A DNA stretch of 64,000 bases from a virus. Its lineage: Duplodnaviria > Caudoviricetes. Below the pieces are notes generated by a model. That model searched no databases. It worked only from the letters and a program-made list of their open reading frames with translations, and was not told where the DNA came from. The stretch is taken from the IMG/VR virus record IMGVR_UViG_3300021255_001258, positions 32,001 to 96,000 of that record. The stretch is one strand, 5' to 3'. A program made the position numbers and the translations under genes. Positions 21,254-61,318 of this stretch are shown here, piece by piece; the first letter of the stretch is position 1, and every line of letters begins with the position of its first letter.

Positions 21254-24200
21254 TTATTTTCTACCGAGTTTTCTTGCTTCTCTAGCATTATATTTGTTTG
21301 TGTATTCACATGCTTGCTTCAAGATATCCTGAAGTTCTGGTAATACATCTCTGGTTACATCTCCCTAAACAGTCAACAGCGATTCATAATTGTTGGTGAT
21401 ATTTGTAGACTGGTCAACTTGAGACGGAATACTCGGCATCTTCATTTGAATGAATGTGTGTGGATCAATTGCGCCCCATTTCATAAGATTTTCTGTAAGA
21501 TTTGCGGGGATTACTCCATCACCTTTAGAGAGAGGAGTGAGGTATGCACCGTCTTTGCGAACGAGGAGTTCGCCGGAGTGCGTCCAGTGAGAGCCAGTAT
21601 ATGGAATACTTGTTATTCCTTTTGCATAGCCTTTCTTTGAAGATTTCCAGCCAGTATCTTTAAGTTTCTTGAGAAGAGCAGCAGCTTGCGTTTCGTTCAA
21701 AGATTTCTGATTAGCGGTTACACCGGAGATTTTTTGATCTACTGCAAGCTATACAAGTTCTTTGTCTGTTGGTGTTTTGCCAGTTATACCTTTTATATAT
21801 TCTTTGAGATTCTATTCTTCGGCTTTCTTTATATCACTTGTGATATTACCTGAACTTGTGGTTGCTGCATTTGATGCTGTAATCTTTGTAGTTTTATTAT
21901 CACTCTTGAAACTTGTTGTGCTTGCAAGGCTTTTGCCATAATTTGCGGACAACACATATCCTTCAAGGTCAAATCCATTATACTGTAAAGCCGTTACAAT
22001 AGCTTTCTTTTGAGCATCTGTTAACTTCTTTCCACTTGCTTCTGTCGGTAGTCCAGAAACATTTGTATATGCTTTACCAATATGTAACATTTCAGCTTCG
22101 GTTAAGTCTTGACCTGTTGTATCATATATATACTTCCATAAAACATCACTTTGTTTTGTCGTAACTGTTCCAGCATCCGGCGTTCTATTTCTTGAATATA
22201 TATATTGACCTGCACCTTGATTTGTTCCAAAACCATACTGCTTCATTGCTGCCAGGATTTTATTACGAGCATCCATTGAAAGATCTTCTTCTTTGGTAAC
22301 TTTGCTCTTATATGGAACGCCCTCAAGATCAGCCCCAAAATCTCTCAGATATTGCGCCAAATGGGCCATTTCTGTAGCTGAAGCATCTTTTCCACCAGTA
22401 AGCTTGTAAAGATAATTCCACAAAGCATCATCTTTATGATTATTAATAGCTTCTGTACTTGCAACTTTACGGGAAGCAGCATAGTTATACATCTTTGTAA
22501 GAGTATTTCTACGTGCTTTTGCCTGTGTAGCAGTTTCTCCACCGGCAGCTTGTTCTGCTTTTTTCTTATCATCCGCATCAGTGTAGCTTGTCTTTTGTTG
22601 GCCGTTTGCCTCAAGACCTCCAACCATTTCCTCATAAGCGGAACGATATTCTCTCATTGCTGTTGTGAGAAGACCAAGATTCTCAAGAGCTTCTTGCGCT
22701 CCTACTGTCATGAATCGAATTGGGTTTGTGCTTATATTATCAACAACGGTTTCCCACTATGTCTAGAAAGAAGAAAGCGTACCTTCATTTTCTTGAACCT
22801 AAGCAGCCCATGCTTGAAGTGGTGCGAGAGTACCATTCAAGTCATCAATTTGTTTTTCTGCTGTTTTTCCGACTACGGTTCCGGTTTGTTTTATCTTAGC
22901 TTGAATTGCACTATATGCACTATCATAATTCTGTTCAACTCGTTTAAGCATCATCGCAACTACTTGCTCTTGAGCTTCTGCATTTCCTTCAACATATTTA
23001 AGCGTATCATCAAGATTCTTTTGTGCTTTGTTTGACAATTCATCGTATCCTTGCTGTTGCATATCTATGCTGTGTTGATAACGAGTATCCGCAAGATCGT
23101 CTTCTTTCTCAGAAATCTAAGCCTTTACTTGTGCAAGGCGGGCTTTCGTCGCAGCATCTTGTACACCGGTAAGGGCTGCCGCTTCTGCGCGAAGCTGTTG
23201 CAATTCTTTATTTTTGCCCTAAAGAGTACGGTTATAATCGTAATAACTCTTTTTGGCTGACAGGCTCTTCTTTCTAAGGTCGATAAGTTCTTGTAATGCA
23301 CGATTCTCATTTGTAATCTACGTCTTATATACATCAATAATGGATTTCTTCAGTTGCTCATTTGCAGACACACTCTGCTGAATTGTCTCTATATGCTGAC
23401 GAGATTCTTCTTCGTATTGCTCCATGGAAATAATTCCAGCGTCATATTCCTCATGTAGTTTCTCAAGAGCGCCACGTTCATTTGCAATAAGTTGATTGTA
23501 ATTCTGAATCTCTGCACCATAGAGCGCAAGTTTTGCGTATCCTTCTTCTGTGATTTCAATTTGGTCACCAGTATCAAATATTTCTGCATCGCTAATAAGA
23601 CTATTGAGATGTTCAAAGTCAGACACTGTTTCTTTAATAATTCTCTGAATTCTTTCGAACGGCTCCCATCTAGTCTTACGAATTGCCTCAGAAAGTTCAA
23701 TGTTGGCAGTAGCAAGAGAGATGGCAGTCTCACGAAGTTGCTGAAGTTTTGCATAACCTTCATTCCACTTATCAGAACCAGGCTCCCATTGTTTCATTTG
23801 CTCTGCAAGAGCAGCGGACTGTTTATCAATCTGAACGATTTCCAAATTGTTTGTATCTATCTGTCCTTGATATGCAGTTCTTCTTTGTGCAATAGATTTC
23901 TGCATCGTGCTTACATCTACACTTGGGAAATTCTTACGAGTCCCAACTTTTTCATAATAACCAGCAATACCTTTAAGAGCACTTGAGAAACGACTTAATC
24001 TTTCTATGGCTTGACCAATAGCGTCAATATCAAGCTGTTTTATTTTGTCGCCCATCTCTACAATAGCAGTATTGGTATCCCAAATGCTTGCCTCAAGATC
24101 AAATAATTTGGCTTTGGCTTCATGATATTCGTCAGTATTTTTCTTGCCAGCCGCCTCTAAATCACTAATGATCTTGGTATATTCGGTATATTGAGACGAC

Positions 24201-27200
24201 AAATATTTCTGTTGTTCTTCAAGACGAACACGTTCTTGATTGTATAACTGTTTGAATGTTCCGCTATTAGCTCTTGTTCCGGTAGCAGTATAATATGCTT
24301 CTTTAGACTGAGTAACTTTCTGAGAGGACTGGACCATATGAAGGAGTCCACCCCATTTTTTATCAGCTTTATCAAACTGCGCTTGAGCAAGTTCAGTTGC
24401 CGCATTCTTAGCAGCCTTCTGGAGTTCAACCAAACTTGTCTTACTTTCCCAATACTCTTGAGTAAGTTGAGCAAGCTGTGTCTGCGCCTCTTGATATTCT
24501 TTACTATTGACACCATATATCTTAGCTGCTTTCTCAAGCTCTTTCTCATAGTCCTTCATTGCCTGTTCGTTGTACTTAACAATTTCTTTCTGACGGACAA
24601 TCTGAGAACCCATATTCTGTCGGATAACTTCGCGGTCTTCACCACCACTTGCCTGATAGTATTCAAGCATAGCTTTTGTGGACGCTTGGATAGCAGAAGA
24701 GCGTTCGGCGAGAGTGCCGTATTTGCTTACAATGTTATCAAGTTTCGTACCTTCGAGTTCTTTTAATTGCTTCTGAAGTTCAATATTTGCATCTACACAA
24801 TCTTCTGCGGCATCTGTCCACTGTTTATAGGATTCAATGAATGTGCGGATTCCCTCATTGTAAGATGTAATATCCAAACTTCCACTATTCAAAGCCTTTA
24901 TAATCTGGTCAGCTTCAGTTGCCGACAAAAGTCCGGCATTAATAGCCTCAGTACGAACTTTATCTGCCTATGTTCTATAATTCTTTGCGGCTGTTTCATT
25001 ATTGCTGATTTGTTTTGTTACAAGTTTTGCTGCCTGATCAAGATAATTGTTCTTGTCTCTTGTATTTGTTGCAAGTTCGGCACGGCTTGTAAGACGTTCG
25101 ATTTCACGGTTTGTCTTTTCAAGTGTGATTTCGGCCATGTTAAACCAATCAGCTGTGGCCTTTTGGAATTTTTCAATTGCTTCTTTTATTGCATCTTCTG
25201 TTTCCTTAGCGGCATCACTAACAGTGCTTGCGACTTTTTTGCCTGTATCTTTTGCAGTATTAGCAACATCTTTTCCGGTATTTGATGGAGTATTTGTACC
25301 TGGAGTTCCAGGTTTAAATTGTATGCCGCCATTTCCGCCATAATGAGATGGCATACCATTATAAGCCAACGTCCCACTAGCCAACGCACGAGCGCCACCA
25401 ATAAGATGACCTTTACCAGAAGCTCGACCAGTTGACATGAGTGCCTTAACTTGGCTATGAGAGAGTATGACGTCACCTTTCTTCAGGTTTTCAACATGCA
25501 TACCTCCCGGAAGAATCGAGAACACACCGTTCCTAATTAATCCTTCCGCGCCGACCTCATTTACAAGTGCTGTCTCATCTTCCTGTAGAGATACATTTGT
25601 TCCTCTAGCATGAGCCGGAATTGCATTGACAACATTATAAGCAGTACCAGAAGCGTGAGCATGGAATGTTCCGGCTGCATCGCTTCCCTGAGCTGGCATT
25701 CCACTTACTCTAGCATGAACACTAATACTATATTGCTGATTCATGATATTCGCGAGTGCACTTGTTATTCCCGTCGTGTTTGCACCAACAGTAATTGTGG
25801 CAGTTCTATGGTTAATACTAGCCACAGCAATATTCGCAGCGTTAATTGCTTCAGAATTATCGCCAGCAATCTTCATAACTGGTTTCTTATTGCTAGCATA
25901 TTTTTCGGCAACATCCGCTTTGGTTCTTACATCGGAAGAATCTCCATTAATTTTCATTTCCGCCGGATTGTCTTCAGCATGCGCCTTAGCTGTATCAATT
26001 GCTTCCATTGCTTTTGTATTATCAGCGACAACATCCATTTTTGCTTCTGTTATTGCCTACGTGAGGTCTTCTATTTGTTCGGACGAAATTTCAACTTTGA
26101 TTGGTGCTTCCAAACTTTCAATCTAACTCTTAAGTTCTGCTAATTCTTGTTTGCCCTATTCGGTGTTAAGATCAATATTAAACTCTTTTGCAAGATCTTC
26201 GTCTGCTAACGATTTCAGTTCTTCAAGTCCAGATATTACTTCGTCTTTTCCTTCGAGGATTGTATTAATGTGTATCTGACGATCATATGTTTTAATTTCG
26301 TTATCTGTTGCGAGTGCCTCGTCGGATCCATCCTCCATGCCTCGTCTTGCTTTTATTAATTGGACTTTCCTTTGTTGCAATGTTTCATTATCTAATTGAG
26401 AAATGTCACCACCCAAATTAAACGAGATATCAACATCCCCGCTTTGCTGCAGTTCTTTTATTTTTTGTCTACCCTATTCAAGCTATTCATTAAATTCTTC
26501 TGCCCCTTGAATAGATGGACCAAATTCTGCATCGGGTGTCCAATCAATAAGTCCCATCTAGGACAAAACAGTCATTAATGCTTTGCCATATTCCTGACCA
26601 AGACCAAGTTCTTTTAAAATTCCATCGAGAGCCTATTCAGCACCTTCTAATTGTGTTTTCCCATCACCAAATTCAATTGTTCCAAGTTCTTCGTCTGAGA
26701 ATTGTTTAAGTGTATTAAGATACTTGCTGATGGCCTCGTTGTAACCATTTATCTTATCACCATCAAATAACTCATGATTGTGCGCAACTTCGGCATATCG
26801 GTCTGCCATTTCTTTTGCGTCTTCACCCTTAAATGTTGCCATAAGAACAGGCAATTCAACCTATTCACCATTTAATGCTTTCTCGGCATATTCTTGCAAT
26901 GCTTCTGGTTCTAGTACATCGCCATTCGGAAGGATTGGTGTCATAACAACGGCTGTCTGATTATCATCGCTGGTATACGTCTAACTATATAATGTCGCAT
27001 AATCTCCATCGAAATCAGGATAAAATTCTTGCATCATGCGAGGAGTAACTCTGGCTCTGTGATTTAAATCAACATCTCCAAATTGAGTTCCAGACACGAA
27101 ATCCGTCATTGCAGCCTCATAACTAGCGCGATCAATTGTAAAATCTTTCAAATTAATCGTAACACCGTATTCATCTGCCATTCTCTGGACTTCGTCCATG

Positions 27201-30200
27201 ATACGTTTCATACCAACTTGATCACCCATATTCTCCGCCGTAGTATAAGCCTGACGAAGGGCATCAACTGTATCTGGTAAATTCTTAAATCCTTCAATGA
27301 AAGACTACTGAGAACCAGCAACATAATTATTTGTGGCGGTATCCAAATTAGTAAGGTCATCTTTTAATCCTTGAATCTGATTACGTTTTTCCGCCAACAC
27401 ATCTTCGCTCGCTCCGGCAGCAACAAGTTGTGCATATTCAAGTTGTGCGTCTGTCAACTGTGTTTTGAGGTCGCTTGCTTTTGCAGAAGCTTCTTCAAGA
27501 GAAGATACATATGCAATATTTCCACCGTAGTCATTGATACGCCCCATCATGTCCATAAAGAATTCATCAGACATACCCATTTCAAGAGCGGCTTTTGCAG
27601 AATCCGCAAAATCAAGAGAATATCCAGTTAATGCATCGTATGTTGCCAATCCTTTAGAAACAAGATCATTGAGGAAATTGGTAACTCCAGATGCGTCATC
27701 TGTGAAGTATCTTTCAACTTTCTTATAATTCTGCTCAAATGTCTTCCAATCAGTTCTTCCGAATGGATCAAGATATGAGGCGCGAGTCTTGAAATCATCG
27801 GTTCCAATAAGTCCCTTATCAAACAGTTCCTTGCCAGTCTTCATATAACCTTGAGCTGTCTCATAGTCAGCACCTTCATTCTTCGTCTGGTCAGCACGGG
27901 CAATAGCAGCAAGACGAGAGAAGTTCTGCATTTGTTCAGCATAAGTAGCATAATACTGAGCCTGTTGACGCATATATTCAGCCATTTGTTCATTAAGTTC
28001 ACGAACTTTGGAAGTATCTCCGGCTTTCGACGCACGGTCGATTGCTTCCTGGATTTCATCCATCTTTGACGCAAAGTCCTGATTAATGATTTCATTCTGC
28101 TGTTCCGCAAGCCTCTGCAGTTCTATCATGTCAACTTTGACACCGTCAGCCGTAGCATAGAACACCGATGAAATGTCTGCTTCATTGGCAAGGTTGCTAA
28201 ACTGTGTGGTTAACTGCTGAATCGTATCAGATGAAAGTCCAGTTTCGGTTGTCATTTCTGACATTGCAGTCGAAATAGCAGAAGAGAGTGCTTGAGCATC
28301 GGAGATTACGAGGTTTTTGATTGTATCGTCGTAATTTGCGATGTCACCAAGGAGAGAAGAGATAGAGGAGTTGTTGGCATCGATTTCCTGACCAATTTCT
28401 CGCCTACGATCCGCAGTGGTTTCAGTTTTTGTAGCTTCTTCGGCAAGAAGTTTATTTTGTGTCCTCAAATTCGCAATCTGGTTCTTACTAAGGTTCTGAA
28501 GCGTTTTATATTCTTTCTCTGTTACTTTAAGTCCCTATGCTTGCTTCAAAGATATAAGGTCATTGATTTCCTATGCTTGAGATTTATATTCATCTAATGC
28601 GTATCCAAGTTGTTTAAGTTCATCATTGGAATAAGCAGAAGAGTATGTGGATGCTTGTTCACGAGCCGACTGAGCATTTGCCGCATGTTCATTTGCGTAA
28701 CCAAGATATTTTACTCTAGTAGCATCGCTTGTTACACGAGAAGCAGCATTTTCCCAATATCTTGCCATAGTATCTTCTTGTTCTGCTGTGTTTTGATATA
28801 ATTCCTGTAAAGAATCATATGTCTTCTTGGTTGTTCTTTGGCCTGATTTTTCGTTCTTGGCAACCAAATTCTCAAGTTTATCAATTTCTGTCTTGTTTAA
28901 GTCAACTCCACGTTGATACGCATTTGTACCAGCTTCAAGCTGTTCTGTTTGAAGATTTATTAAATCTATTTGAGATTGCGCTAAAGCCGATTCAGATTCA
29001 TTTAACGCTTTTTGCGCAGCTTTGTATGCCGGAGAACTGGTATCATAAATCCTATTTCGTTTTTGTCTCTTGTTGGAAACATCTTCCTGATTTAATCTGA
29101 TCGTTTCTTCTGCATTTCTTATAATCCCATCATAGTCGGCCTAAGTGATAATATCACCCTTTGCTTCTTTATATTCAAGTTCAGATCTACGCTTTTGCGT
29201 ATCAGAATCAAGCCTTTCTAGTTCTGCTTGTATTTTTGCTGTATCTGCATCAATTTCCCAGACCATCTTCATGTCTTTGTATTTTGCATAGATTTCGTCT
29301 GCTGTGCCGGAGAATTGGTCGGAGGCGATCATTTGATAAACTACGTTCCAATTGAGTTCTTCGTCACCAAGTTTTCCTTGGAGGTCTTCGATCTAAGAAT
29401 CAAAAAGTTTAGATAATCCTTCACGTTGCGCATGAGTGGCAGCATTGACATCAGCCGTAGCATTTAATTCCATAAACAAATCTTTTACATCCGATGATTC
29501 ATCTGCTAAATTCCCCATGGAAGATACAAGATTCTCGACATATGTATTTAATTGCTGTAATCCTTCAGCGGACATACCATCAACATTCGCACGAAGTTCT
29601 TTAATCCACTCTGTTAATTTTCCGACCGCCTTGTCGGATATTGCTTTTTCTGTAAACTCTGTTAAATCTGGGAATGAATCCTGAAGTGTCTTCATTTCAT
29701 CGGCTGTTAATGTACCATTTTCCCGCAAAGATTCAAGTGCTCCAGTGAGAGAGGAGAGTGAAGTTTCAAAAGATTGTGCTTTCTCCGCATAACCCTCATC
29801 ATTAAATATAGAAGATAAATTATCTGTAGGTTCAACTTTTTGTATTTCTTTTCTCGCCTCTTTATATTTCTCTAACCAATTTAAGAAATCTTCCAAACCA
29901 GAACCTTCATAATCAAATTTGCCTTTGATTTTTGCCTCTTGAACTAAATCAATATCTTCAAGACTAATACTACGTACTTCGTCCGAAGAAATTCCGAGTT
30001 CTTCTGCAAGACTGTCAAGATCGGCGGAATCCGAATAAAAATCTCTACCAGTTTTTTCATCCACATAAGTAAGACCAAGCATTACACGAATATTTTGCCT
30101 TATTTTATATGATTCATCATCATCTCCTGGGACAATTTCTCTAAGAACTTTGGCAAAATTATCTCGATATTCTGTGGTACTTAATGATTTATCTGAAAAT

Positions 30201-33200
30201 GCATCTAATAATTTCTTCGCATTATCTTCGGATGCTTTTGATATTTCGCCATTACTATCTGCTAATGCAGCAACAAGAGGATCAAGAAAACGTTTCCGCA
30301 AAAATGCTCTTGGATCATCACCCAATAAATTCCAATCATCATCTGATAATCCCTCTAAATCTAAATTCGTAATATCGTCAGCAATAATCTATTGCAACTA
30401 TTCTCCAACTTTAAGGTCCCCAAGTTTTTGATAATCTTCGTAAAGATTCATTTGAGAAATAAGCGAAGGAACTAATGCATTCCAATCAGCTTTTACTTCT
30501 GCCATATCGCTCTTCTTGATTGAAAGAGCTTTTATATACTCCTCCGGTAAAGAGCCTAAATCTGCTGATTGTACGGCTGCTTTAAATGTTTTTTCAAATT
30601 CTTCCACATTTTCTTCTGTCGCATCAGCAAGATTTAGAACAAGTCTACCAGCGGTAGAATCTGAAGCGGAATAATCCACATTCTTATAAATGGAATTTGC
30701 TGCATCAACGTACATCTTAGTAATCTGGTCAACAACCTTTTGCATACTTGGATCGTTCGGATCATAATCCCACCTAAGTGTACCGTTTTCGTCTAACCCT
30801 AATTTAGAAATGTCAATTTCAGCACCCGTTTTCCCGGCTTTTATTGTGTCTTGTATTCCTTTTACCGTATTTACTATATCTGTCTGCCGAGCAATATCTT
30901 TCTATAATTCTTCATATCTAACTTGAAAGCCCTTTAATGCGGTTCCTAATTGTTCTCCAATCTAAAAATCGGCAAGCTGCCTTTCTTCTTCTAATAAAGC
31001 AGCGATACTTTCTTTTGCTTTATCTGCGTTGGCGTCTAGTGTAAGAATAGCATTCCCTTGCGAATCAAATCCAGAAACGAGACTTGGGAAAAGATCTGCC
31101 ATTTGTTGATTCAGTGACAAGAATTCCTGATATTTCTCTGTTGATAACTCTCTGTTAGAGATTCCTTGATTTGTATAATCTACGCTTTCACGAAGTTTTA
31201 AATAATCACTAAGATTATCTTCCTAATAAGTTCGCCTTTGATCATATTGTTGCCGAATATCTGAAATCCGAGATTGTGCCTCTTGCCCTTTTTGAATCGC
31301 GATTTCTCGTCTATTGACATAATTTGAAATAGCATTGATTGTTGCACCAAGTGCTGCCGAAATTGCCATGGATATCCCAGCATTGACAACAGTAGAAAGG
31401 ACTGTACCTCCAAGAGATTTTAATCCAGATATTAGTTTTGAACCGCCACCTTGAGTTTGACTTGCGGTCTATTTTTCTAATTCCGCCTGTTGTTCTTTTG
31501 CTTTGCCAAGCGCTTGCGACAGATTCATTGCCTCTGTACTTGCATTTGCTAATCCTTGCACATATTGTTGAGCAGAAGAGGAGAGACCTTTAAAATCGCT
31601 CGACTATATAAATGTATCAAGATCTACAGAACTTCCGCCAGCTTGTTTAAATGCTTTTTCTAATTCTGGTATAAGATTCTGCTGTACGCCTGTGCCGATG
31701 CTCTTTGATGCGGATTGACCGAATTTCTGGAATATATTGGAGAATTTTCCTGATTTTCTGTCGAAGCCTAAAAATCCTATATCTTTGAAATTTGACAATA
31801 CTCCAAATACTGTTCCGACTATCATATTCAACCCACCAAAAGCGTCGGCGAGTGATGTGATTACTTCAATAGCTTTTGTACCAAAATCGATAATACCCTT
31901 AATCCAAGAAGAATCAATTGTAGTACTTATAAGTTCCTGGAGTCTGTTTTGGAATTGAGCCACTCGGCCCTCAATAGAATCGAGGTATTTATTTAGCTCC
32001 TCGTCGGCTGAACCGAGATAGTTATTCGCTGATGCTTCGCGTACTTGTTCCAATATGTCGCCATTCTAGAGAATACTGGCGACGATGTTAGATCTGTTTT
32101 TCCCAGCAAGCTATTCAACAAGAGCCTATGCTCTATTCGTTCCGCGCTATTTATCTTCAGCCTAAATCTCACTATAAATCTTTGAAATGTCTAACAAAAT
32201 ATCATAAGTGTCCCGCAAATTCCCGTTTGGGTCAAGAACACTAACACCTTTATACATATTGCTTGCAACTGCTGTATAATCACGAATGATTTGATCAGTT
32301 TTGGATCTGGTACGTACAACGAAATCGTCAACATCTTCACCCATATCAGCAATTTCGTTCTTGGCCTCTTCAGTGCCTGAAATACGAAGAGCAATTGTAC
32401 GGATACCAGCAGACGCTTTGCTCATATCTTGTCCAATAAGATTACCAGCTGTCAGAAGAGCAAGAGTCTGATCTAAATCATTTCCCTAAGTTTTTAATAC
32501 AGCTCCTGCATTTTGTAATCCTTGTGCCAGTTCATCTGTGGATACGGCAAAATTATTGCCAATAAGATTTAACTTATCAACAATGTCTGAAGCAGTAACA
32601 TCGGTGTAGGCCTAAGTAGCAGATACTAATGCATCTGTAGCATCTTTTATGTCAGTAAATTCTGAAACATTCAAAAGTTTTGTTGATATTTCGGCCATAT
32701 TCGCAGCTTCTGGTAAGTTCTTGCCAAGTCTTAACCAATCCGCCGTAGAACTCTGAATTTGAGAAGCAGTAGTACCAACACGGTCAGCAATATCAAATGA
32801 TTCAAGCTGATATTGTTGTAATGTCTATAAGCTCTCATTTGATACTTTTCGCATTTCGGTAAGCTGAGTATCAAGTTCAGTTACAACAGATATTGCTTCA
32901 CGGCCATAACGTATAAAGTCCTGGAAACTCAGATAATACGTTGCAAGACTCGTCATTGTGTTCTTGAACTGGTCTTTGAAACGATCACCGAGAGATTTAC
33001 CAAGTAAATTCTTGGAAGCCGCATCAGATTGAATTCCACTAAATATATTTTCAAGTCTAGAGGCTTCAGCCTCATTGTCAACTGCTGCGATTTGTCCTTT
33101 TAACGTTTCTAATTGTTCGCCGAATTCTTTTGCGGCGATTTTATTCTGATTTGCCCATGTTTCAATTTTAGCAGTAAATGAGGATTGCCACGTTTCTCGG

Positions 33201-36200
33201 ATCGGTAAGAAATCTTCACTCTTCATTGTAGCCTTCATTCTGCCAATAAGAGCATCGAAAGCCTTTTGGTTTTCTTTATAATCCCGTGTCCCGATATTTT
33301 CTTTAAAAACAGTTGCTTCTTGTCTAAGTTCATCAATGATATCTTTCCAATTACCTTTTCGCCAAGAAGACTATTTTTCCATGGTTTCCAGTTGGTTATT
33401 TAAACCCTTTGTCCATTTATCAGAAAATTCTTGCGACACATCTGCTTGGAGTTGAGCAACTGTCTTTAAACCACCCGTCATCTTTTCAATAAATTCCGCA
33501 CCTTGAGCAATCTTTGCATTCCATTCTGTTTGTTGATCGGTCATATAACGAGCTAAATCAGCCATTCTTGCTTCATCTTGTGTACTGATTCCGCCACTGT
33601 TTTGCATACGATATAGCTTTTTATATTCTTCGCTTTCTTTTCTGTATATTTCAATTTGTGTTTGTGTATCAGATTTTAATGTCCTTAATGTCGCATTCTT
33701 CTAAGCAGTAGCTAGAGCATCTATACTTTCAGCCGTACCTTTTGATGAAACAGCAAGTTTATCTATGGCGTCCACATATTGTTCAACACTGATTGCTCCC
33801 TGTTTATACATATCATTTATTTTAATGATTGCATCATTTGCAGCTTTGGCAGCACTTGCAGATTTTACAGAAGCTTCTGCCAACTATGTGTCAACGGTCT
33901 TTCCGTTTACTTGTTTCGTTTCAATTTTATTTAACTCTGTTTTGGCTTTAGTTGCCGCTTCAATTGTTGCTAAAAGTTCTTTATATTCAGCAGTAGCATC
34001 CTTTGTCGGATTTGCGGTTGTTTTGCCAGTTGTTCCGGATCCAGCTGCTTTTCCGGCGGTTGCGATCTTCTTCTCACTGGCCTCAAGAATTTTCGCTAAA
34101 GATTTGAGTTCTTCACTTTTTTTAAGCAGTTCATTTAGAGAGTCGAAAGCAGAAGAGTTGATGCCCTCATTCGAAAGTTTCTTGAAAGATTCTCCGATTG
34201 TATCAATTGCCCAACTTGCGTCTGTGAGATTTTGTACAGTATCTTTATTGACCTTGACATTATTGATAGACTCAAAGAGATCTTTCAGACCACTAAGAAC
34301 ATTGGTGTCATCGCCACCCTTGAAAAGGTTCTATAAAACTTTTGCGAGTTCTTCAACTTTACCGATTTCAAGATCAATAAGATCGCTTACCTCAGCTTGT
34401 TCTCCACGAAATGCCTGAGTTTTTACATCTACGGCTTCTGGGATTTCACCAACGAGTTTTGCTCTTAATTCGTCAAGCGCATCCTGTTCAGCCGACATTG
34501 CTTCGCCAACTGCTTTGGACTCTTGTTGAAACGAATCACTGATAGCAGTAGAAGAGGGACTTTCTCCGGTAGCTTCCTTTTTTGCGTCGGCAAGTTTTTC
34601 TGCATTCTTTGCGGCGTCAGCGTATGCTTCACTTTGTTTTTCTATTTCGGTAAAATCGCTTAATGCAGACTTGCCTTGTAATGACGCGTCTTCAATATTA
34701 ATTTTTACAGTTCTTTCTTTAGTTAAATCTTCAAGCTAGTCTTCTGCTTTTGATGTATCAATTTTAACTTCAATTGGTTTCTCTAGTTGTTGTGGGTAAA
34801 TAGAAGATAGCCATTCGTCTTGATCCATTACTTTAAATATTTCTGACGGATCTAGGCCATAAGACTTAATAGCATTTTTTAAAGCAGACTGTTTTACTTG
34901 CATGTTTTCATTTTCCGTCAAAGATTTAAAACGCTTAAATTCCTTGCCAATTAAATCATCAACGTCATATAATACATCATCACCAATTTTTTCTGCATCT
35001 AATGAAGATACATTTAAACCCTTAATTCGTTTCTGGATTAATTGTTTAACCGCATCATCTAATTCCTCTGTTACAACTTCTCCTCCATATGTCTCATTTG
35101 AAGATATCCTTTTTTGGATATTCGAAGTTATAGTATTCATTATGTCTTTTAATAAATCCTAAGAAAGACTATTATCCACTATTGACCCAGAAAATGAATT
35201 GGTTATTGTTTCCTATATTTTTCCCCGAATAATATCTGCATAATTCTATGGTAATAAATCCTATAATTTTACATTTTGCGCTTTCTATTGTAACTTTTCT
35301 GTAGATTCTTTATTCCAATTTTGCGAAAATTTTTCTTGCAAATCACTTGCTTTTACACCGGACGAAACAAGTTTTTCTATATCCAACATTGCAATTTCTC
35401 TGCCAGCTTTTACAAACTATTTTGTGATACCTTTTTTGTATTCCGTTTCAAGCATATTCTTAAATTCGTCACCAGAAAATGCTGCATAATTTACATTGGG
35501 ATGCGTATGAAGAACGCTATTAGCTTTACCACCAAGATAATCAACTAATTTTCCAGTATGAACACCTCGGCCCAATTCTTGATTAACATAAGATGCAATC
35601 CCCGTTATATCATTAAAAGCAATGCCTTCTTCTGATTCTTGTTTTCCATATAAAGAATCAATTTCCTTCATTCCTTTTAACAGATCCAATGATTTCGCAA
35701 CGGGACCATTCACTGAAATATTTATCTCTTTTGAATCTGGAAGTTCTTTAAGGGCATCATTAATCTTATTAATGGCCTCTAATGCCTAATTTGGGTCAAT
35801 ATCTATAGTTGGAGAACTAACAGTTTCACCGCTTACTCCATTAGTCTAGCTAGAAGATTGAAGTTTCGACAATTCTTGTTTCAATTTATCTATTTTCTAA
35901 ATTTGCGCATCGATCATATCATCAGATATTAAATTATCCAATGCAGCGTTAGCGTTTGGCAGATAGTCTGCCTAAGCAGTTTCAATCTATTTCAATGCCT
36001 TTACTAATTCATCACTATTTATCGGGGAACCTGCAAAATGTTTTTTATAAGTCGCATATAAATCCATAATCCTTTTTTGCTTTTTATCAATTTCTTCTGG
36101 ATCAGATAATTTTCCAAGTTGTTCGATTTCGTACTTCAAATAATCTTTTCTAAACGTCGGAGCATTAATAGTAGAAGTGCGTTCACCTTTTTTACTGTTT

Positions 36201-37546
36201 AATCTATCTAATTCTTCTTCGGCTTCTCGGATTTCTCCTTTTAATTTTTCTATTGCTTCTGTAGCATTTCCAACTCCGTTAGCAACGCTTTGACCAGAAG
36301 ATTGTCCGGCTTCTCCCATTTCTTCTAATGATTCGGCAGCATCTCTTGCATCTGACCCAGTTTGTACAATAGAATTATTTTTACGACGAGACGGTATTTT
36401 CTCATTGTCTTCTTCAGCTCGCTTTTGCGTGTTTTCGACATCTCTTTCAACTTTTTTTTGTTGTTTTCCAGCCGTTTTTGACAACCATTCATTAAGTTCT
36501 CTTTTTGCAGCATCAACATTCTGCTTTTGTTTTTTCGTCGCTCTTTCGGCATATGCTATCTAAGCTTGGTTTAAATCAGAAACTATTTCATTCCGATCAT
36601 AATTACTTAACAACAACCCCTGAGTGTCTTTGGCAATCTTGAACTGTTTTATCATCTAATCTTGTAATGAAGATAAACGAGTAAATACATCGAATATTTG
36701 TTTCGATTGTTGCAAGAACCCTTCGGGATTAGTTTCTGAAAATTCTTTCTTTTTGGCAATCAATTCATCTAATAAAGCAGCCGTTCTTGAATAATCGTGA
36801 ATTAGTAATTCTCCATTATCTGATTTTGTTGTATTTAATCCTTTAGTAATTCCTAATTGTTTAGCTAGTTCCAATCCTTTGCCTTTTGTGAACTCTCCAC
36901 GACTATTCTTTTTTTGAATCTCTTCATTGATCTTATCTCGGCTAAGATAAAACTTATCTTGATGTTTTTTAGCTTCGTCAACTGCTTTTGCATAATCTTG
37001 TTGTAATGACACTTGTTCTCTCAATTTCTTTATCACATCATCTATTTGCTTATCAGTCATATATTGGAGAGAAGTCCTATTAGTTAATGAAGCTAATAAT
37101 TCTATCTCATCTTTGGTGTGAGAGATAATGTCATATAAATCCTAAGCACTTTTCGTCGAATCTAAAAAACCATCTGTAATTCTACTAAAAAATGGAGTAA
37201 GATTTACATTCTACAAAGTTTTCGATGCAATTTTCTTAATCCCATCAAATGCGCTTTTTAACCCTAACTAATCATCGTCTAATTTTAAATTTTTCTTTAT
37301 ATCTCCCTATAGCCCACTTAATAATTGTTGAAAACTTTTCTAGTCCCCTTCAAATCTAATAGTTGCACTTGGGTCGGCATTTTGAATCTTTTTTAATACA
37401 TCTTGCAGTGATTTCTAATCACCTGTGAATTTAATTAATAATTCATTATCAGCCATCATTGACTAAACATTTGCCATTTCTTTTGTGACTTCTTTTGCAA
37501 TCGCAGAAGCATCCGCCCCCACGGTAAATATATAATCATAAGCCAT
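21254..37546 (-). CDS. Giant tape measure protein, ~5430 aa (recoded)
   Basis: 22 track ORFs share the frame of ATG 37546 and the junctions inspected are TAG; tape-measure core (ELDTQLTEMRKVS, GNNFAVST, AGKNRSNIVASIL); ends TAA TAA. Not every gap was checked codon by codon. Confidence 0.85.
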
Positions 37547-54331: not shown

Positions 54332-55873
54332 TTATTGATTCCTGGATCTTTCACCAGAATCCGAAATTGGCTCAGTATCATCCAAACTGGGTCTTCCAAC
54401 GTCATTCGAATCTCCACTAGAAGTAAATGAAGATGAAAGTGGGAAAACCATTTTATCCTGCAATTTTAATACATCTGTTTCAAACCATAGATTCGCTAGA
54501 GATTCTTTTTCACTCACTCCAAGAAGTGTATTATATGCAATTCTATTGGCAAATGAATACTGACAACTCTCAAGCATCGATTTTCTAAATTCTTCTTTTG
54601 TGTAGATACTTATCTCAAAATGATCCACTTTACAAGGATTAGACAGTTCATAGCTCAACATACGATTAACCCATCCGTTAATCTATGGCATAAGAGTAGA
54701 AATGGCAAATTCTGTCTCTTCTTTTAGCCAAGCATTTAAAGCTGCAGTGGAATCAATTTGCGAAGAATTAAGAATGGCACCACCACCACCAGTAGACAAA
54801 ATTTGATTGGAAGCCTTTTCAACTCTATTAACATCATTATCTACAGAACTAGAAAAATCTATAACCTTTAATTCATCCCCAGGGATAACAGCTCCGGCAA
54901 CATATGGTGGCAATCCGGTTTCTAATAATCGGTTAAAATAATCCAGAGTTATATCAGGAGTTACCTCAAAGTCATCGGCTTCATCGGTTCCAGACAAGAC
55001 CTTCATTGGTAAATAAACTAGCTTATATATGCTGAGTTCGTCGGCAACAGCCTGTTGGTCTTTGTTGTCTTCAAGAGCCGTAAGCTGCAAGAATAAACTT
55101 GAAAACGGTGGAACAACCGTATCCCATAAATCAGATCTGAATTTTAGAACAACTGCATATTCATCTGGACAATGTACATATTTAACTCCAGTTCGTTCAT
55201 ATTCTGCATACATTTCTTTAAGCGGAGAGCCAAGAAACTCTATAATGGCCTGTCTTTGCGCATTTCTCCACTTTGACATATCTATAGCCATCGAAAAATC
55301 TTTTGTCATATAACGTCCATCAATAATACAATCGTCAGGATCTAGCCGGAATAAAAACATACCAGTATCATCCATAAATTTAAGCCCATAATAAACATCT
55401 TCAACGTATGTATTGATTAATGCTTCAGTAAAAGCGTCATGAATACCCATGCGTTCAAGGACTTCAATTGTATCATTCATAGACTTTAATGCTTTTGTCG
55501 CATCTCCACCTTTTACTAAATCGTATGTCGGTGTCACTTTACGACATCGCAAATCCCACATATTTGCATAAAAATTAACAATCCGAAAATATATATTAGA
55601 CCTATAATATAAATATCTGGAAACTGCCCTGAAATTACTTTCATTAGCTGCAATATTAGCATAATATGTAGATAACGTTTCTTTGTTAATTGTTGTTATT
55701 GTCCTTGCTGTCTAAGACCTAGATGTATCGCGCAATTGTCGCAACGCATCTTTCGCATTGGCATACCGCTCAATATTATTTTTATTTTTAGAATACCATT
55801 CACGAATCTCTTCGATAGAAGGGTTATCCTTTTCAGATAGTGTCACTGTTGACACCTGTTTTTTAGTCGCCAA
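54332..55873 (-). CDS. Portal protein, 513 aa (recoded)
   Basis: Between terminase and protease; C-terminal PLSSSFTSSG..GRP; TTG start after AAGGAGG. Confidence 0.8.
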
Positions 55874-55887
55874 CTGGCAACACCTCC

Positions 55888-57807
55888 TTATAGTGAACTA
55901 AACCGCCTACCAGGTCTAATGGTGAGGCGATTAATAAAATCTTTATTATCTGGTTTTTTGCGCTGACGAATCTAATCTTCTTGCCTCATTATTGCAAGAC
56001 AATGAGCAAGCAAACACAATGTATAAGATCTATCATCGCCAATTAAATTCTAAAAACCCGGAGCTAAATCATAGCGAATATTATTATTGGAAGACTTGTA
56101 TCTATACATATGAGTGACTTCTTCTTTCATAGCATCAATCTGTTTTAATGCCTGCTCTTCATCAGCAGTTAATTTATATATTTCTTCATTTTCCTCATCT
56201 CCGTCTTGCACAAGAAATGAGAGATTCCCATGATAATCATAATCGGCAGTAAATGATATTAAATCCTGTTCAATTAACTCAATTAATTCTGTATACATCT
56301 ACACTTTATATTTAGAAGGTTCAATCATTCGCACTACATCTATATTGTCTGGATATCTTTTAATATAAGGTTGACAAAAATCATAAGTCTTATCCATCAG
56401 ACCTCTATGTTTATAATCAGGATCATTTTTATGATGTTTCTCATACCACTCATCAAATAAATATCCCAATACTTGGGTTGCACCACCGCCGCTTCCTGCA
56501 TCCATCATAAGGTATTTAATATTCTTGTAATCAGGAACGCCTATACCATTATAATTGATCAATTCTTCACGAACTCTATCAACTTGCTATGGTGTTGTCA
56601 ACGGTTTTCGCGTTTCTTTATCAATTAAATTAATGCAATTAACAATCTCCATATGCCAACCACGCTTATCATTATGCAATAGTTTCCCAACACTCAAGAT
56701 GCTATTATCCTTTTTCGCTGCCAAGTCCCATGCAAGAACATACAAACTCTTATTGTCTGCATTTACAAGTTCCGGCGGACGAACAACACTATTCCTAAGA
56801 ATTTGAGACTTCTTAACAATTATTTGGTCTCCGCCATCAATATCAAATTTATTTCTATATTCTCGATTCGCCTTTATAGGATTGATCTTCATTTCAGAAT
56901 CTATTTTTTCCTATGTTAAAAGCGGAACGGGATAAACTTTGCCATTATAGGTCGCATTCATTACCAGGTCACAATCTATATCAAAACAAGCATATCTTTT
57001 ATCTCCGGCCATACTGTGTAGAGCATACTCTTTATACATCCTATAAAAATAATCATCCACAGATCCGGCAGAAGATGCAAATATAACTTGATTGGGAAAA
57101 TTCGGCGGCAATAATGAAACGTCAATATTACCACCAAGAGCAAAGTCAGAGTTCTGACTAACGAACGGAAGAGTAGCAGTATACATATCTTCCAGAACAT
57201 ATGACGCTTCGTCATAGAAATTCAAACGAGAACGCTTACCACGCGACGCATCAAAATTACTGTTTACTGTAGCAATCGTAGAACCAGAATACAATTTATA
57301 ACTCCACGAGTTTGGGTTGTGAGAAAACCCATTCGAATTTGCCTGACTTTTGACAAGTTCGTTCATGAATACGTCTGTAAGACCAGTAAAACTCGCAATT
57401 TCTTTCTTGGTGATAGCCTCAATCTTTTTCATCATGCCAATACTTTGTGCTCCAGTACCAGACAGGATATATCCCTCGAAATACGGAAGAAGAAGAGTTT
57501 TTGCCATTAAAAATGGACTACCTAATGTAGTTTTGCCACTGTTTCGGCTCATGCACCAAACCACATATGGAGTAATCCAACTTTCCATAAATACATATTT
57601 CTAATAATCCAAAAACTCTATCCCCATAAAACGTTCGCAAAATTTAACCGGATTTCTACGTCCCCACTAAATTATTTCTGCGGTTTTCTTTAAACCTTCA
57701 AGCCGAAGATTAGACATATCATAGTAAGTAGGTTTTACAAAATATGTATAATTCTTCGGATTAAATTCCTCAATTTCTTTACCAAGTAAAGTAATATTTT
57801 CACTCAT
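55888..57807 (-). CDS. terL: Terminase large subunit, 639 aa (recoded)
   Basis: Walker A SRNSGKTT, Walker B FYDEA, nuclease AWDLA and DDR; four track ORFs in frame via TAG. Confidence 0.92.
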
Positions 57808-58996
57808 CTATAACATTTAATGCTTCGTCGATAATATTTCTCTCTATAAGAAAATCTTTTAAATCTTTGTTTTCTTTACGGAGTAACCTACAATATTCAA
57901 CAGCATTATCCCTTTCTTTTTGCAATGTATGAAGAAGCTGTGCCTGATGTTGAACCTCTCGTTCCCAGTCATTTTCATCAGGATTAAGCTGCTTCATCTG
58001 ATTCTGAAAATTAGCCTCCATTATATTGGAAATGGCAGCATTAGTCTCGTAGTCAAACGTATTTATCTCAATGTCATCTAAATTCATTTCTGACATTTCC
58101 TTAATGATACCACTAAGAGTTCCAGCTCCTTTACTTTTACTATTGTTATGGTTAACGGATATACCGTTATCTTTCGCAAGAGCAAGAGCAGAATTTATCA
58201 TCTTTTGCTTTGTGTCAGCTAATGACTTTATTGTAGAGATTACAGCCGGATTTTCGCCAAGCTGTTTTTTATATTTAGAAATTGCGTCATTGATTGTTTT
58301 AATGTCCTTAAAACTTTGCACAATCTCAATTACTGCTTCTAACTTTAATCCATCGTCTCGTACAGAATCATCAAAATAACTAACAAGTTTTGCATAAAGA
58401 ATCGGCTGTTCTTCAATCGGCTCATTCTCAAACGGGTCATAACCAAGGAAGCGGAGAGTAGTCTTCTTATTTATTTCATAAGTACTTCTCACATCTTCCG
58501 CCAAATCATCGGCAGTCTTTGGCTCTTTAATAATATACTGACCACCACCCGCCACATTCTTCTTAAACATATCTGAATCAAAAAAGTCCATTCCGACCCA
58601 GTTGACCATTTGTATATTTTTTATGTAGGCGGCCCATGGATTATGTTTGACTTTCCCAGCTACAAGATTATCTGATTCTTGCACACTTGCATCCCAAACA
58701 GTATTAATAAACGGTTTATTCAGTAGCTTAAGAGCTTCAATACAAGACTCTTTTGTTACTTCATGTTCAATACCGTCCTCATCAACTTGAAGCGCAATTT
58801 TTCGCGCACATTCTTTACACACACAACCAACCTCACATTTACAATGTGGATCAGTATTGACATAGAATTTGCTTTTATCTTTAAGGACACCGCAAACAAT
58901 ACAGCGCACCCCATTTTCAAGCAACTTCTTCATTTTTTCGTTTTCTTCCCGTACCTGTGCTATGGGGATTTTCTTCTCTTGTTTTACCACAGCCAT
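57800..58996 (-). CDS. Zn-finger protein upstream of terL (possible small terminase)
   Basis: CxxC..CKEC; LGYDPF; overlaps the terL start. Confidence 0.65.
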   Translation of the reverse strand: MAVVKQEKKIPIAQVREENEKMKKLLENGVRCIVCGVLKDKSKFYVNTDPHCKCEVGCVCKECARKIALQVDEDGIEHEVTKESCIEALKLLNKPFINTVWDASVQESDNLVAGKVKHNPWAAYIKNIQMVNWVGMDFFDSDMFKKNVAGGGQYIIKEPKTADDLAEDVRSTYEINKKTTLRFLGYDPFENEPIEEQPILYAKLVSYFDDSVRDDGLKLEAVIEIVQSFKDIKTINDAISKYKKQLGENPAVISTIKSLADTKQKMINSALALAKDNGISVNHNNSKSKGAGTLSGIIKEMSEMNLDDIEINTFDYETNAAISNIMEANFQNQMKQLNPDENDWEREVQHQAQLLHTLQKERDNAVEYCRLLRKENKDLKDFLIERNIIDEALNVIDE

Positions 58997-59754: not shown

Positions 59755-60615
59755 TTAATCCAGTATTAAATCATCTAATTCTAAATTGTCAGAATCTAGA
59801 TCATTCATATAATCATAGACATCAAAATATTTATTTATACCAAGCTCTTGTCTTTTCCTGTTTACATACTCTTCAAGCTGTTCTGGCGTATTATCATACA
59901 CTCCATATTCATAATGAAATGATCCGGGAATTGCCAAATTATGATGGTCTCTACATAAACAGATACCATTATAAATAGAGAATCTAGATTCTGGATGAGA
60001 AGAAAATGGGTAAATATGATGATATTCACTATTCTATGTAGAACCACAAACCACACACTCGCCGCCTGTTTTCTTGAGAACTTCTTTTTTCCAATCCCGG
60101 TATAAGCCAGTTTTGCGAAGTTCTCTAATGGCAGATCGATCACCATCTTCTGATGTACTTGTCTCCGTGGCATGTCTATTTTTCCCATAACAAGATGCTC
60201 TTAGGCCACTTTTAAGTTTTCCTGCTAAAACAGAAACTTCTCTACCACATGTACATTTACACATCCAATAAGTAATTTTCTTTTCTCTCGTTTTTTCTTC
60301 GTCAAAATATAAAGCAGTCAAATTCCCGAATTGTTGCCCAGTTAAATCTTCTCTCGTTTGGCCACCATGTCCTCCTGTACACTGCAAACATTGAAAAACG
60401 CGATCCGGTTTTTCAGTAAAACCCAAAAGTCTTCTACTTTCGCTTTCATGGATACCATTTGGACATTTGAAATAATATTTAGTTTTGGTTCTAGCTGGCA
60501 CTTCCGACGGCAGTTTATCATTCCTCTCATAGTCCCAAAGATCCAACAAATCCTGACGATTATTTTCAATACACCATTCTTCGAACGTCTATTTACATGT
60601 ATACCTGTTACCCAT
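59755..60615 (-). CDS. Free-standing HNH (homing-type) endonuclease with zinc ribbons, 286 aa (two TAGs)
   Basis: DLTGQQFGNL, WMCKCTCG, CVVCG...HHI...NGICLCRDHH. Confidence 0.85.
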
Positions 60616-60638
60616 ATTTTTTACCTCCTATAGTAAAT

Positions 60639-60717
60639 TCCTAGTTATTAAATGCGAGAAGAGAAGTCTAGGAGCACTTCTCTCATGAGGTTAATTACTC
60701 CTCATGTTTCTCGCATT
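60639..60717 (-). ncRNA. Structured RNA (three-way junction with pseudoknot) in HNH leader
   Basis: AAUGCGAGAA/UUCUCGCAUU closes CAUGAGG/CCUCAUG and GAGAAGU/ACUUCUC; loop UCCUAG is complementary to downstream CUAGGA. Confidence 0.6.
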
Positions 60718-60720
60718 AAA

Positions 60721-60808
60721 CAAGCCCGGAGGGACTCGAACCCTCATTCGCGGCATCAGACGCTCTTACAGATTTAGAGTCTGCTGTTTTGCATTAAACT
60801 ACGGGCCT
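60721..60808 (-). tRNA. Amber suppressor tRNA (anticodon CUA)
   Basis: AGGCCCG/CGGGCTT acceptor, G73; GCAGA-CTCTAAA-TCTGT anticodon arm; GAGGG-TTCGAGT-CCCTC T arm; 22-nt variable region. Confidence 0.92.
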
Positions 60809-60838
60809 TTATAGCGCAGCTTCCACTACGCCAAAACA

Positions 60839-61318
60839 TTATTCCTTCTTATCAGTTGAGAAAATTACACCCTCGTCCTCACCAATAATCTCTTTAGCGA
60901 TATCTGCCATCAGAGTAGAGGTAATGCCATGAGGATCCCCCATATTGTCGTTCCAGAACTGGATAACCTCCGGTTTAAACACAACATAACTAATCGGATT
61001 CGACATAATTCCTTCAATAGTCGTTGCATAAGAAAATGCCGGATTGCCCTCAAACGCTCTCTTAATATAATCAATTCTCTTCGGTTCATCATTCGCCGGA
61101 ATTACTTCGATAAACACGGATACATTTCCAAAATCTTTCTGTACTGGCAGAAGCTCATCAAGAGCAGTAGCTTTTTCATGACTTTCAACATACAGCTTGA
61201 TATGCATCTCGTCCTCATCAAACTCAACTTTAATATCAGGATCTGGACTAAACATAGCTTCAAGTTTTCTATAGTACTCCACCCAAGGCGGAGACAGTTT
61301 TGTCTTTTTATCTTCCAT
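60839..61318 (-). CDS. Conserved phage hypothetical protein
   Basis: KLSPPW...FEGNP...VIQFWNDN; GAGGG RBS. Confidence 0.75.
   Translation of the reverse strand: MEDKKTKLSPPWVEYYRKLEAMFSPDPDIKVEFDEDEMHIKLYVESHEKATALDELLPVQKDFGNVSVFIEVIPANDEPKRIDYIKRAFEGNPAFSYATTIEGIMSNPISYVVFKPEVIQFWNDNMGDPHGITSTLMADIAKEIIGEDEGVIFSTDKKE

Follow-up and report, generated by a model that had tools for sequence, protein, structure and literature searches.

The 64,000-nt window analyzed here, which spans positions 32001-96000 in one virus record of 127,448 bp (38.5% G+C), encodes at positions 60721-60808 a tRNA with the amber anticodon CUA and a 22-nt variable region, in the loop of which the glutamine anticodon CUG and its neighboring A37 appear to be mimicked. 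We propose that this tRNA is a working amber suppressor that inserts Gln at the UAG codons of late genes and that it is probably charged by the glutaminyl-tRNA synthetase (GlnRS) of the host through the variable arm, here termed the pseudo-anticodon arm, a reading to which we assign a probability of roughly 0.6. The more general proposition, for which we would put the odds at even, is that the amino-acid identity of natural tRNAs can reside in an additional anticodon arm (YUG-A for Gln, CCA-A for Trp) that takes no part in decoding and is read by a host synthetase. Within that reading, an arm with the cognate sense anticodon loop would be present in about one fifth of phage amber suppressors and in many opal suppressors.

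Variable arm of amber suppressors

A length-unbiased scan of IMG/VR for tRNAs with the CUA anticodon returned 90 distinct sequences, 19 of which have a variable region of at least 13 nt. The motif Y-U-G-A is found in 17 of these 19 and in none of the 71 with short loops. Enlargement of the set with a long-arm scan of viral contigs and a scan of JGI metagenomes yielded 48 distinct long-armed CUA tRNAs, which fall into 17 clusters at 80% identity; these family sets stem from pattern scans with a fixed anticodon loop and T loop. YUGA is carried by 45 of the 48 (33 CUGA and 12 UUGA), and the three exceptions consist of two tRNAs with Ser/Leu-like class II bodies and the tRNA of locus L083 (loci are designated here by L numbers).

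In alignment A2 (32 sequences), U-G-A, preceded by C or U, are the sole invariant bases between the anticodon and T arms. The stem of the arm is 76% paired, with changes on both sides at all four of its four pairs, the two best of which are distributed as CG19/GC8/UA3 and CG23/GC5/UA2. The commonest loop is the 7-mer Y-U-C-U-G-A-R, which follows the format of an anticodon loop (positions 32-38) with the anticodon CUG and A37, and which differs from the real loop CUCUAAA at position 36 only. The YUG triplets are exactly the two Gln anticodons, and close siblings display either CUG or UUG in an otherwise identical arm (L487 vs. L466/L472). In the window tRNA the arm reads G-U-C-U-G-A-U-G, corresponding to U33-C34-U35-G36-A37-U38 in anticodon-loop numbering.

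The hairpin between the anticodon and T arms is a trait shared with class II tRNAs (Ser, Leu, bacterial Tyr and Sec), as G73 is with tRNA-Ser, and a class II, Ser-type arm had been considered in an earlier reading of this DNA made from the sequence alone (hereafter, the sequence-only reading). The dimensions and the content of the arm speak against it. In this data set, the arms of class II tRNAs bear 3-4-nt loops of unconserved sequence and 1-3 unpaired 3' bases, whereas pseudo-anticodon arms have conserved, often 7-nt loops and mostly 3-7 unpaired 3' bases (commonly 4 or 6). The window arm, with a 3-bp stem, an 8-nt loop and a 4-nt 3' linker, differs likewise from those of Ser tRNAs (4-6 bp, 3-6-nt loops and 1-2 nt, respectively), and its loop holds the Gln anticodon motif. 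Of 135 class II sense tRNAs encoded at the same loci, 8 contain YUGA (Ser 5/67, Leu 1/39 and Tyr 2/29). This pattern of conservation indicates that the arm family is under selection to display the Gln anticodon. Two further interpretations of the arm were rejected: a K-turn or box C/D reading of CUGAUG, since only YUGA is conserved and the second strand is absent, and base pairing between the arm loop and the anticodon stem, for which covariation across members is absent.

The arms are found on two types of tRNA body, a Gln type with U1-A72 that scores best on the Gln model and an A1/G73 type, several members of which have an A1.C72 mismatch. The standard first pair is missing in 8 of the 32 tRNAs of A2 (L108, L005, L239, L014, L018, L074 and others), the cases examined by eye showing A1.C72 beside G73; an open first pair is said to be preferred by GlnRS. 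Long-armed and short CUA suppressors are adjacent to each other in L057 (355-521) and lie some 430 nt apart in L015 (3019-3613), and the two forms may have different roles within one phage.

Variable arm of opal suppressors

Opal suppressors in phages read TGA as Trp. An arm that mimics an anticodon in accordance with amino-acid identity would therefore be expected to show CCA in long-armed opal suppressors. Searching for UCA tRNAs whose variable region is long returned 41 distinct sequences (14 clusters at 80% identity), and U-CCA-A is present in the arm of 20 of them, 13 of which display it in 7-nt loops such as CUCCAAA, the anticodon loop of tRNA-Trp. The other 21 are mostly tRNA-Sec-like, with 6-9-bp arms and 3-5-nt loops, the rest being undiagnostic. 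YUGA is found in 35 of 38 long-armed CUA tRNAs, the set before its growth to 48, and in 1 of 41 UCA tRNAs (Fisher p = 9e-18), and UCCA in 0 of 38 and 20 of 41, respectively (Fisher p = 1e-7), p-values that overstate independence because the members of each family are related. Among class II sense tRNAs from the same loci, UCCA occurs in 3/67 Ser, 0/39 Leu and 1/29 Tyr tRNAs.

The UCA suppressors of L449 (8971-9064) and of L403, L434, L389, L424, L366, L370, L371, L388, L353 and others are 93-100 nt long, and their variable arm forms a complete additional anticodon arm that displays the Trp anticodon in a CUCCAAA or GUCCAAA loop; in L449 this arm nearly duplicates the real anticodon arm. The genomic context of both families is congruent with suppression, as the cover by long open reading frames (ORFs) rises from 0.45 to 0.68 around CUA tRNAs with YUGA when TAG is taken as sense, and from 0.47 to 0.67 around UCA tRNAs with UCCA when TGA is.

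Meaning and use of TAG

The amino acid inserted at TAG was addressed by translating all ORFs with X at TAG and comparing them by tblastn with 80 loci that surround relatives of the terminase and mostly follow the standard code. Among the 1389 cells aligned opposite TAG, Q accounts for 517, E for 231, I for 101, S for 76 and W for none; Ser appears at variable sites only, and five of the seven strongly conserved TAG sites correspond to Gln. Terminase TAG sites 50, 72 and 302 face Q in 74/76, 77/80 and 79/80 homologs, respectively, and portal TAG site 397 does so in 51/59. A per-site likelihood based on how each sense residue is substituted in these alignments gave log-likelihoods of -62.6 for Q, -76.7 for E, -90.4 for A and -99.5 for S. 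TAG is hence found opposite conserved Gln, never opposite Trp and not opposite Ser at conserved sites, so that it encodes Gln (code 15) in this phage, with Ser and Trp excluded as its main meaning. The ambiguous Gln/Ser/Trp decoding contemplated in the sequence-only reading is not supported by these alignments, and its other suggestion, that Gln is inserted as by the E. coli suppressor Su7, agrees with the alignments.

Reading TAG as sense reveals long minus-strand ORFs, the longest of which spans 5430 codons, and gene ends throughout the record are TAA or TGA. TAG makes up 156 of the 794 CAA, CAG and TAG codons (19.6%) in the 39 late genes (structural, packaging and lysis) and 2 of 212 in the 33 early plus-strand genes. 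Summed over all ORFs of at least 60 codons, some of them spurious, in-frame TAG codons number 217, which demands a suppressor. ARAGORN locates four tRNAs in the 127,448-bp record (Asn, Pro, Met and CUA), and the window tRNA, already taken for the amber suppressor of this genome in the sequence-only reading, is the sole one with a CUA anticodon. A search for a second suppressor, a synthetase or a release factor had been suggested there as well; it returned no other CUA tRNA, and no release factor, class Ib/Ic synthetase or CCA-adding enzyme was found across the record, which CheckV estimates to be about 65% complete.

Besides the portal and large terminase, the record encodes an integrase. Relatives of the terminase lie in prophages or contigs of Lachnospiraceae, Lachnoclostridium and Paenibacillus assemblies, and a Lachnospiraceae genome that harbors a related prophage (terminase 67% identical) possesses a true GlnRS (TIGR00440, 717 bits against a cut-off of 426). 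Among INPHARED phages, the tRNA has no relative and the terminase matches only 25%-identical proteins from Bacillus phages.

Structure and isotype of the tRNA

The tRNA matches Rfam RF00005 with 57.9 bits (E 6.5e-10, cut-off 29) and is reported by ARAGORN as a 7/5 cloverleaf, while its minimum-free-energy fold is a cloverleaf with a small hairpin in the variable region. The acceptor stem consists of A1-U72, G2.U71, G3-C70, C-G, C-G, C-G and G-C, with discriminator G73, and is followed by U8 and A9; the anticodon stem GCAGA/UCUGU surrounds the loop CU-CUA-AA, and the T arm reads GAGGG-UUCGAGU-CCCUC. The features on which the sequence-only reading had relied (A1-U72, G73, the loop CT-CTA-AA and the 22-nt variable region) are thus all present. 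It had also remarked on a D loop without GG, and this is true of the window copy, in which the loop (AAUGCA) has 6 nt and a single G, but it is not a trait of the family. Every sibling tRNA has the GG (AAUGGCA, AAUGGUUGA and similar), so that the window copy differs from them by a single-G deletion, which could be either a real variant or a homopolymer assembly error. Two other assignments were rejected: tRNA-Pyl, the ARAGORN label, which follows the anticodon only and calls for a compact D loop and a short 3-nt variable loop, as compared with the 22-nt variable region found, and an allo-tRNA, whose 12-bp branch is split 8/4 or 9/3 (PMC5389517), as compared with the 7-bp acceptor and 5-bp T stems seen here.

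The acceptor end (A1-U72 and G73) and A9 are of the Firmicute tRNA-Trp type and recur in the tRNA-Trp of the related Lachnospiraceae host; the tRNA-Gln of the same host genome has U1-A72 and a differing D arm. Nearest-neighbor typing against the tRNAs of one host genome gave Gly(UCC) as the closest body, not Trp, and isotype covariance models were therefore constructed for Trp (54 tRNAs), Gln (47) and Gly (47). The window tRNA scores 49.5 bits on the Trp model, 42.8 on the Gln model and 23.8 on the Gly model, whereas true tRNAs reach 72-83 (Trp) and 83-87 (Gln) bits on their own models. With so small a margin, the likeness to Trp is weak, even if the nearest sense neighbors of the window tRNA among phage tRNAs are Trp. 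The pair C5-G68 stands where B. subtilis tRNA-Trp has G5-C68, and the anticodon is CUA instead of C34 C35 A36, with U replacing C35, a major Trp determinant. The body appears to be a divergent hybrid that leans weakly towards Trp. The Trp-like scaffold of the sequence-only reading is therefore borne out by the acceptor end, A9 and the best-scoring model, but not by the size of the margin, by the score relative to real Trp tRNAs or by the comparison with one host, in which Gly(UCC) came closest.

A one-step origin is nonetheless documented in this phage group. The CUA tRNA of L092 (2282-2356) and the Trp(CCA) tRNA of L144 (6546-6621) differ only at position 35 (C to U), which points to a natural Trp-to-amber conversion of the Su7 type, and in relatives whose terminase is 70% identical, tRNA-Trp(CCA) genes lie upstream of the terminase gene. 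The Su7-like route suggested in the sequence-only reading is in keeping with this conversion, with the insertion of Gln, with the presence of GlnRS in the host of a related prophage and, by a small margin, with a body that leans towards Trp.

By the E. coli rules, the GlnRS identity features found in the window tRNA are G73, the weak A1-U72, G2(.U71), G3-C70 and G10-C25, the pair G2-C71 being a GlnRS determinant. As regards the anticodon part of the set, U35 is present and position 36 is A, G36 being found only in the loop of the variable arm (U-CUG-A-U). The discriminator base and the 1-72, 3-70 and 10-25 pairs have been listed as determinants for GlnRS (PMC9976931).

Proposed charging through the pseudo-anticodon arm

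No GlnRS/GluRS-family gene was found in four near-complete phages of the CUA type, and no TrpRS-family gene in one complete phage of the UCA type. With no class Ib/Ic synthetase found in the record and none of the families searched for in these phages, the tRNA is most likely charged by a host enzyme, the likeliest being host GlnRS. Tryptophanyl-tRNA synthetase (TrpRS) depends on C34-C35-A36. GlnRS reads U35 and G36, mutations of the anticodon lowering kcat by as much as 1e4-1e5, and takes tRNA-Trp(CUA) as a substrate (PMC9976931). It would be drawn to the window tRNA by G73, the weak A1-U72, G2, G3-C70, G10 and C34-U35 of the real anticodon, together with the variable arm, where the pseudo-anticodon would offer the G36 that the real anticodon has given up in order to read UAG. 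In arms of the UCA type, the base supplied to the host synthetase would be C34.

In these tRNAs a single base separates the D stem from the first hairpin, and the second hairpin and the T stem are mostly 3-7 bases apart, a spacing much like that of an ordinary variable loop. It is tempting to speculate that the tRNA has two exchangeable hairpins, with the mimic lying under the D stem during charging and the stop-reading hairpin on the ribosome. This model is favored because each hairpin has a canonical linker on one of its sides and because both hairpins of the opal suppressors are full anticodon arms. That the pseudo-anticodon is read by GlnRS, and the route by which a single enzyme might reach the arm, are inferred.

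Several points weigh against such charging. GlnRS is a monomeric class I enzyme, and the variable region faces the solvent in the known complex; a single enzyme cannot hold both the CCA end and the loop of the arm unless the tRNA refolds or the arm acts otherwise. The arm of the window copy is among the weakest of the family, with 3 bp and an 8-nt loop or an alternative register, and in its fold the C of CUG may lie hidden in a C-G pair. This copy might in addition be impaired by the loss of the D-loop G that all siblings retain. The missing part of the record could hold a second suppressor or a synthetase, and the host of the phage is itself inferred from related prophages.

Rather unlikely, but the strongest of the competing explanations, is that of a plain Su7-type suppressor for which U35, G73 and a weak 1-72 pair suffice, the arm serving as an anti-determinant (e.g., against TrpRS, lysyl-tRNA synthetase or a further enzyme with an approach from the side of the variable loop) or as the site of some other factor, with YUGA devoted to that function. 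The geometry of class I GlnRS disfavors direct reading of the variable arm, 71 of the 90 distinct phage CUA tRNAs are short-looped and presumably functional, and the L092 tRNA is a Trp tRNA altered at position 35 only. E. coli tRNA-Trp(CUA) needs no additional arm in order to be charged with Gln (PMC9976931). What this explanation leaves unaccounted for is the occurrence of loops, often of 7 nt, that hold the Gln anticodon and A37 in CUA tRNAs and the Trp anticodon and A37 in UCA tRNAs, and a steric anti-determinant would not need a conserved loop sequence.

A poor prospect, in our view, is a two-headed tRNA arisen by duplication of the anticodon arm, in which the second hairpin is a relic, or reads CAG/CAA (UGG in the UCA family), and plays no role in charging. 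The near-copy hairpins of the L449 type, both with 5-bp stems and 7-nt loops (CUUCAAA vs. CUCCAAA), have indeed the look of a tandem duplication. A relic, however, is not expected to retain an invariant loop across 17 clusters on a stem that drifts and covaries, the arm of the window tRNA and of most CUA members has 3-4 bp, unlike a real anticodon stem, and a Gln-type loop on a Trp-leaning body is not the relic of the tRNA's own anticodon.

We give still less credit to the notion that the window copy, devoid of the D-loop GG, is crippled, and that decoding is left to a host factor or to another suppressor encoded in the third of the genome for which sequence is missing. The loss of one G with respect to all siblings and the partial record lend themselves to it; yet the remaining tRNA is intact, with all stems paired and a good Rfam score, the 217 in-frame TAG codons (some of them in spurious ORFs) call for a suppressor, and the tRNA occupies the same site as the suppressor of the closest relative found (L295), after a homolog of the same upstream gene. 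A single-base homopolymer difference, moreover, can be an assembly error. Finally, insertion of Ser (long arm and G73) or of Trp (A1-U72, G73, A9 and the best-scoring model), or ambiguous decoding, is highly improbable, given the absence of W and the restriction of S to variable sites opposite TAG, the A1-U72 and G2.U71 pairs in place of the G1-C72 and G2-C71 conserved in bacterial tRNA-Ser (PMC9976931), the 3-bp stem and 4-nt 3' linker of the arm as against 4-6 bp and 1-2 nt in Ser tRNAs, and the replacement of C35 by U.

Relation to known systems

Like the window tRNA, E. coli Su7 (supU) tRNA-Trp(CUA) has A1-U72, G73 and a CUA anticodon of the C35U type, and inserts Gln at UAG (PMC9976931). 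Su7 is nevertheless a point mutant with an ordinary 5-nt variable loop, whereas the window tRNA has a divergent body and a 22-nt arm with an apparent Gln anticodon mimic. Phages with TAG=Gln and their suppressors have been well described (Borges et al., preprint 10.1101/2021.08.26.457843; phAss-1, PMC10607447; Kienbeck et al., PMC10879173). As in the code 15 phages of gut and rumen, the suppressor studied here is phage-borne, lies in a tRNA/late-gene region, serves late genes with TAG=Gln and is not accompanied by a phage synthetase; the papers on those phages describe neither the variable arm nor any anticodon mimic. Kienbeck et al. assigned 19.4% of their CUA suppressors to the Trp isotype and read this as possible TAG=Trp (PMC10879173), whereas in the alignments of the window phage it is Gln, not Trp, that is found at TAG.

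The term pseudo-anticodon arm was coined by Mukai (2020), who reported that such an arm, placed in the variable arm of amber suppressors, modestly enhanced charging (PMC7590224). In both cases an amber suppressor bears in its variable arm a copy of an anticodon arm that is, or here would be, held by the anticodon-binding domain of a synthetase. That construct was synthetic, with an allo-tRNA (9/3) chassis and a histidyl-tRNA synthetase carrying an extra fused anticodon-binding domain, while the phage arm is natural, belongs to a 7/5 tRNA and is presumably served by an unmodified host enzyme. Synthetase-binding mRNA mimics, such as the E. coli thrS operator and yeast synthetase mRNAs (PMC9976931), resemble it in that a loop copies the cognate anticodon loop, but they regulate translation of an mRNA, whereas the phage mimic resides inside the very tRNA that is charged. 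No description of a natural tRNA with an anticodon mimic in its variable arm was found in the full-text literature, among it a review on tRNA identity from 2023 and a screen of 213 phage suppressors from 2025, although a prior description is possible because most subscription journals lie outside that scope; the precedent found is engineered only (Mukai 2020).

How a host synthetase that reads the anticodon comes to accept a tRNA with a stop anticodon was posed as an open question by Borges et al. (10.1101/2021.08.26.457843) and has so far been left to 'side reactions'. A cognate anticodon mimic inside the suppressor would provide a concrete, testable answer and, if true, would be new as a principle of tRNA identity and represent a mechanism of codon reassignment that occurs in nature. 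The tRNAs with pseudo-anticodon arms would also add a structural class to those of natural tRNAs and offer genetic-code engineers a natural version of a design so far only synthetic. For annotation, the Pyl label given by ARAGORN to the window tRNA serves as a warning that long-armed suppressors risk being mis-typed or down-weighted.

Annotated features and neighboring elements

The coordinates of the tRNA, its parts and the genes referred to above are listed in Table 1.

Table 1. Location of the suppressor tRNA, its structural elements and associated genes in the 64,000-nt window.
Feature	Position	Strand	Basis
Amber suppressor tRNA(CUA), 88 nt, CCA not encoded	60721..60808	(-)	ARAGORN; Rfam RF00005; minimum-free-energy fold
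3' acceptor strand, paired to 60802-60808; 7 pairs; G73 at 60721	60722..60728	(-)	
D arm GUUU-AAUGCA-AAAC, G10 present	60786..60799	(-)	
Anticodon CUA, tRNA positions 32-34 of 88 nt, loop CUCUAAA	60775..60777	(-)	
Variable region, putative pseudo-anticodon arm, 22 nt; GCG/CGC stem (alternative register GCG/UGC), loop with U-CUG-A-U	60746..60767	(-)	Fold; alignment A2
C-U-G-A, putative mimic of Gln anticodon CUG and A37; only conserved bases of the arm	60756..60759	(-)	Invariant columns T51 G52 A53 of A2
Gene of 159-aa protein just upstream of tRNA	60839-61318	(-)	No Pfam or PHROG match
5430-codon frame, 64 in-frame TAG	21254-37546	(-)	
Large terminase gene, 8 in-frame TAG	55888..57816	(-)	phrog_2
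Portal gene, 2 in-frame TAG	54332..55873	(-)	phrog_2739

Directly 3' of the tRNA, at 60651-60717 (-), a stem encloses two hairpins (z = -3.8 over the 121-nt stretch folded), and a two-hairpin element of different sequence recurs downstream of the tRNAs in L487, L474 and L295. The next gene, which codes for an HNH endonuclease, has the ribosome-binding site UAGGAGG, and the loop of the second hairpin always holds CUCCUA-like bases complementary to it. The element, for which no matching Rfam family was found, may be involved in processing or in translation control. No ribozyme family matches positions 60600-60900 in Rfam up to E = 1, and no theta ribozyme of the hepatitis delta virus (HDV) type was detected behind the tRNA by that search. 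In theta-ribozyme-linked phage tRNAs an HDV-like ribozyme cleaves at the tRNA 3' end (PMC10879173); the conserved 3' element of the window shows no obvious HDV fold. On the 5' side, a short hairpin (GCGUAG...CUGCGC) at 60809-60835 (-) ends a few bases before the tRNA, and the siblings have a terminator-like hairpin followed by a U run at the same site.

The 159-aa protein encoded just upstream of the tRNA has at least 85 homologs, including some that are 97-100% identical and reside in near-identical genomes. In 31 of 80 viral loci, the homolog lies within 3 kb of various tRNA genes, often immediately before one, and in L240 and L019 it adjoins CUA tRNAs. A role as partner of the long-armed suppressor was discarded, since the tRNAs at those 31 loci are of many kinds, with CUA at only three loci, and the family is associated with phage tRNA clusters. 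In L265, where the neighbor protein is 88% identical to the 159-aa protein, the same position (503-575) holds a 73-nt CUA tRNA of the Gln type that does not have the long arm, so that suppressor genes have evidently been swapped at this site.

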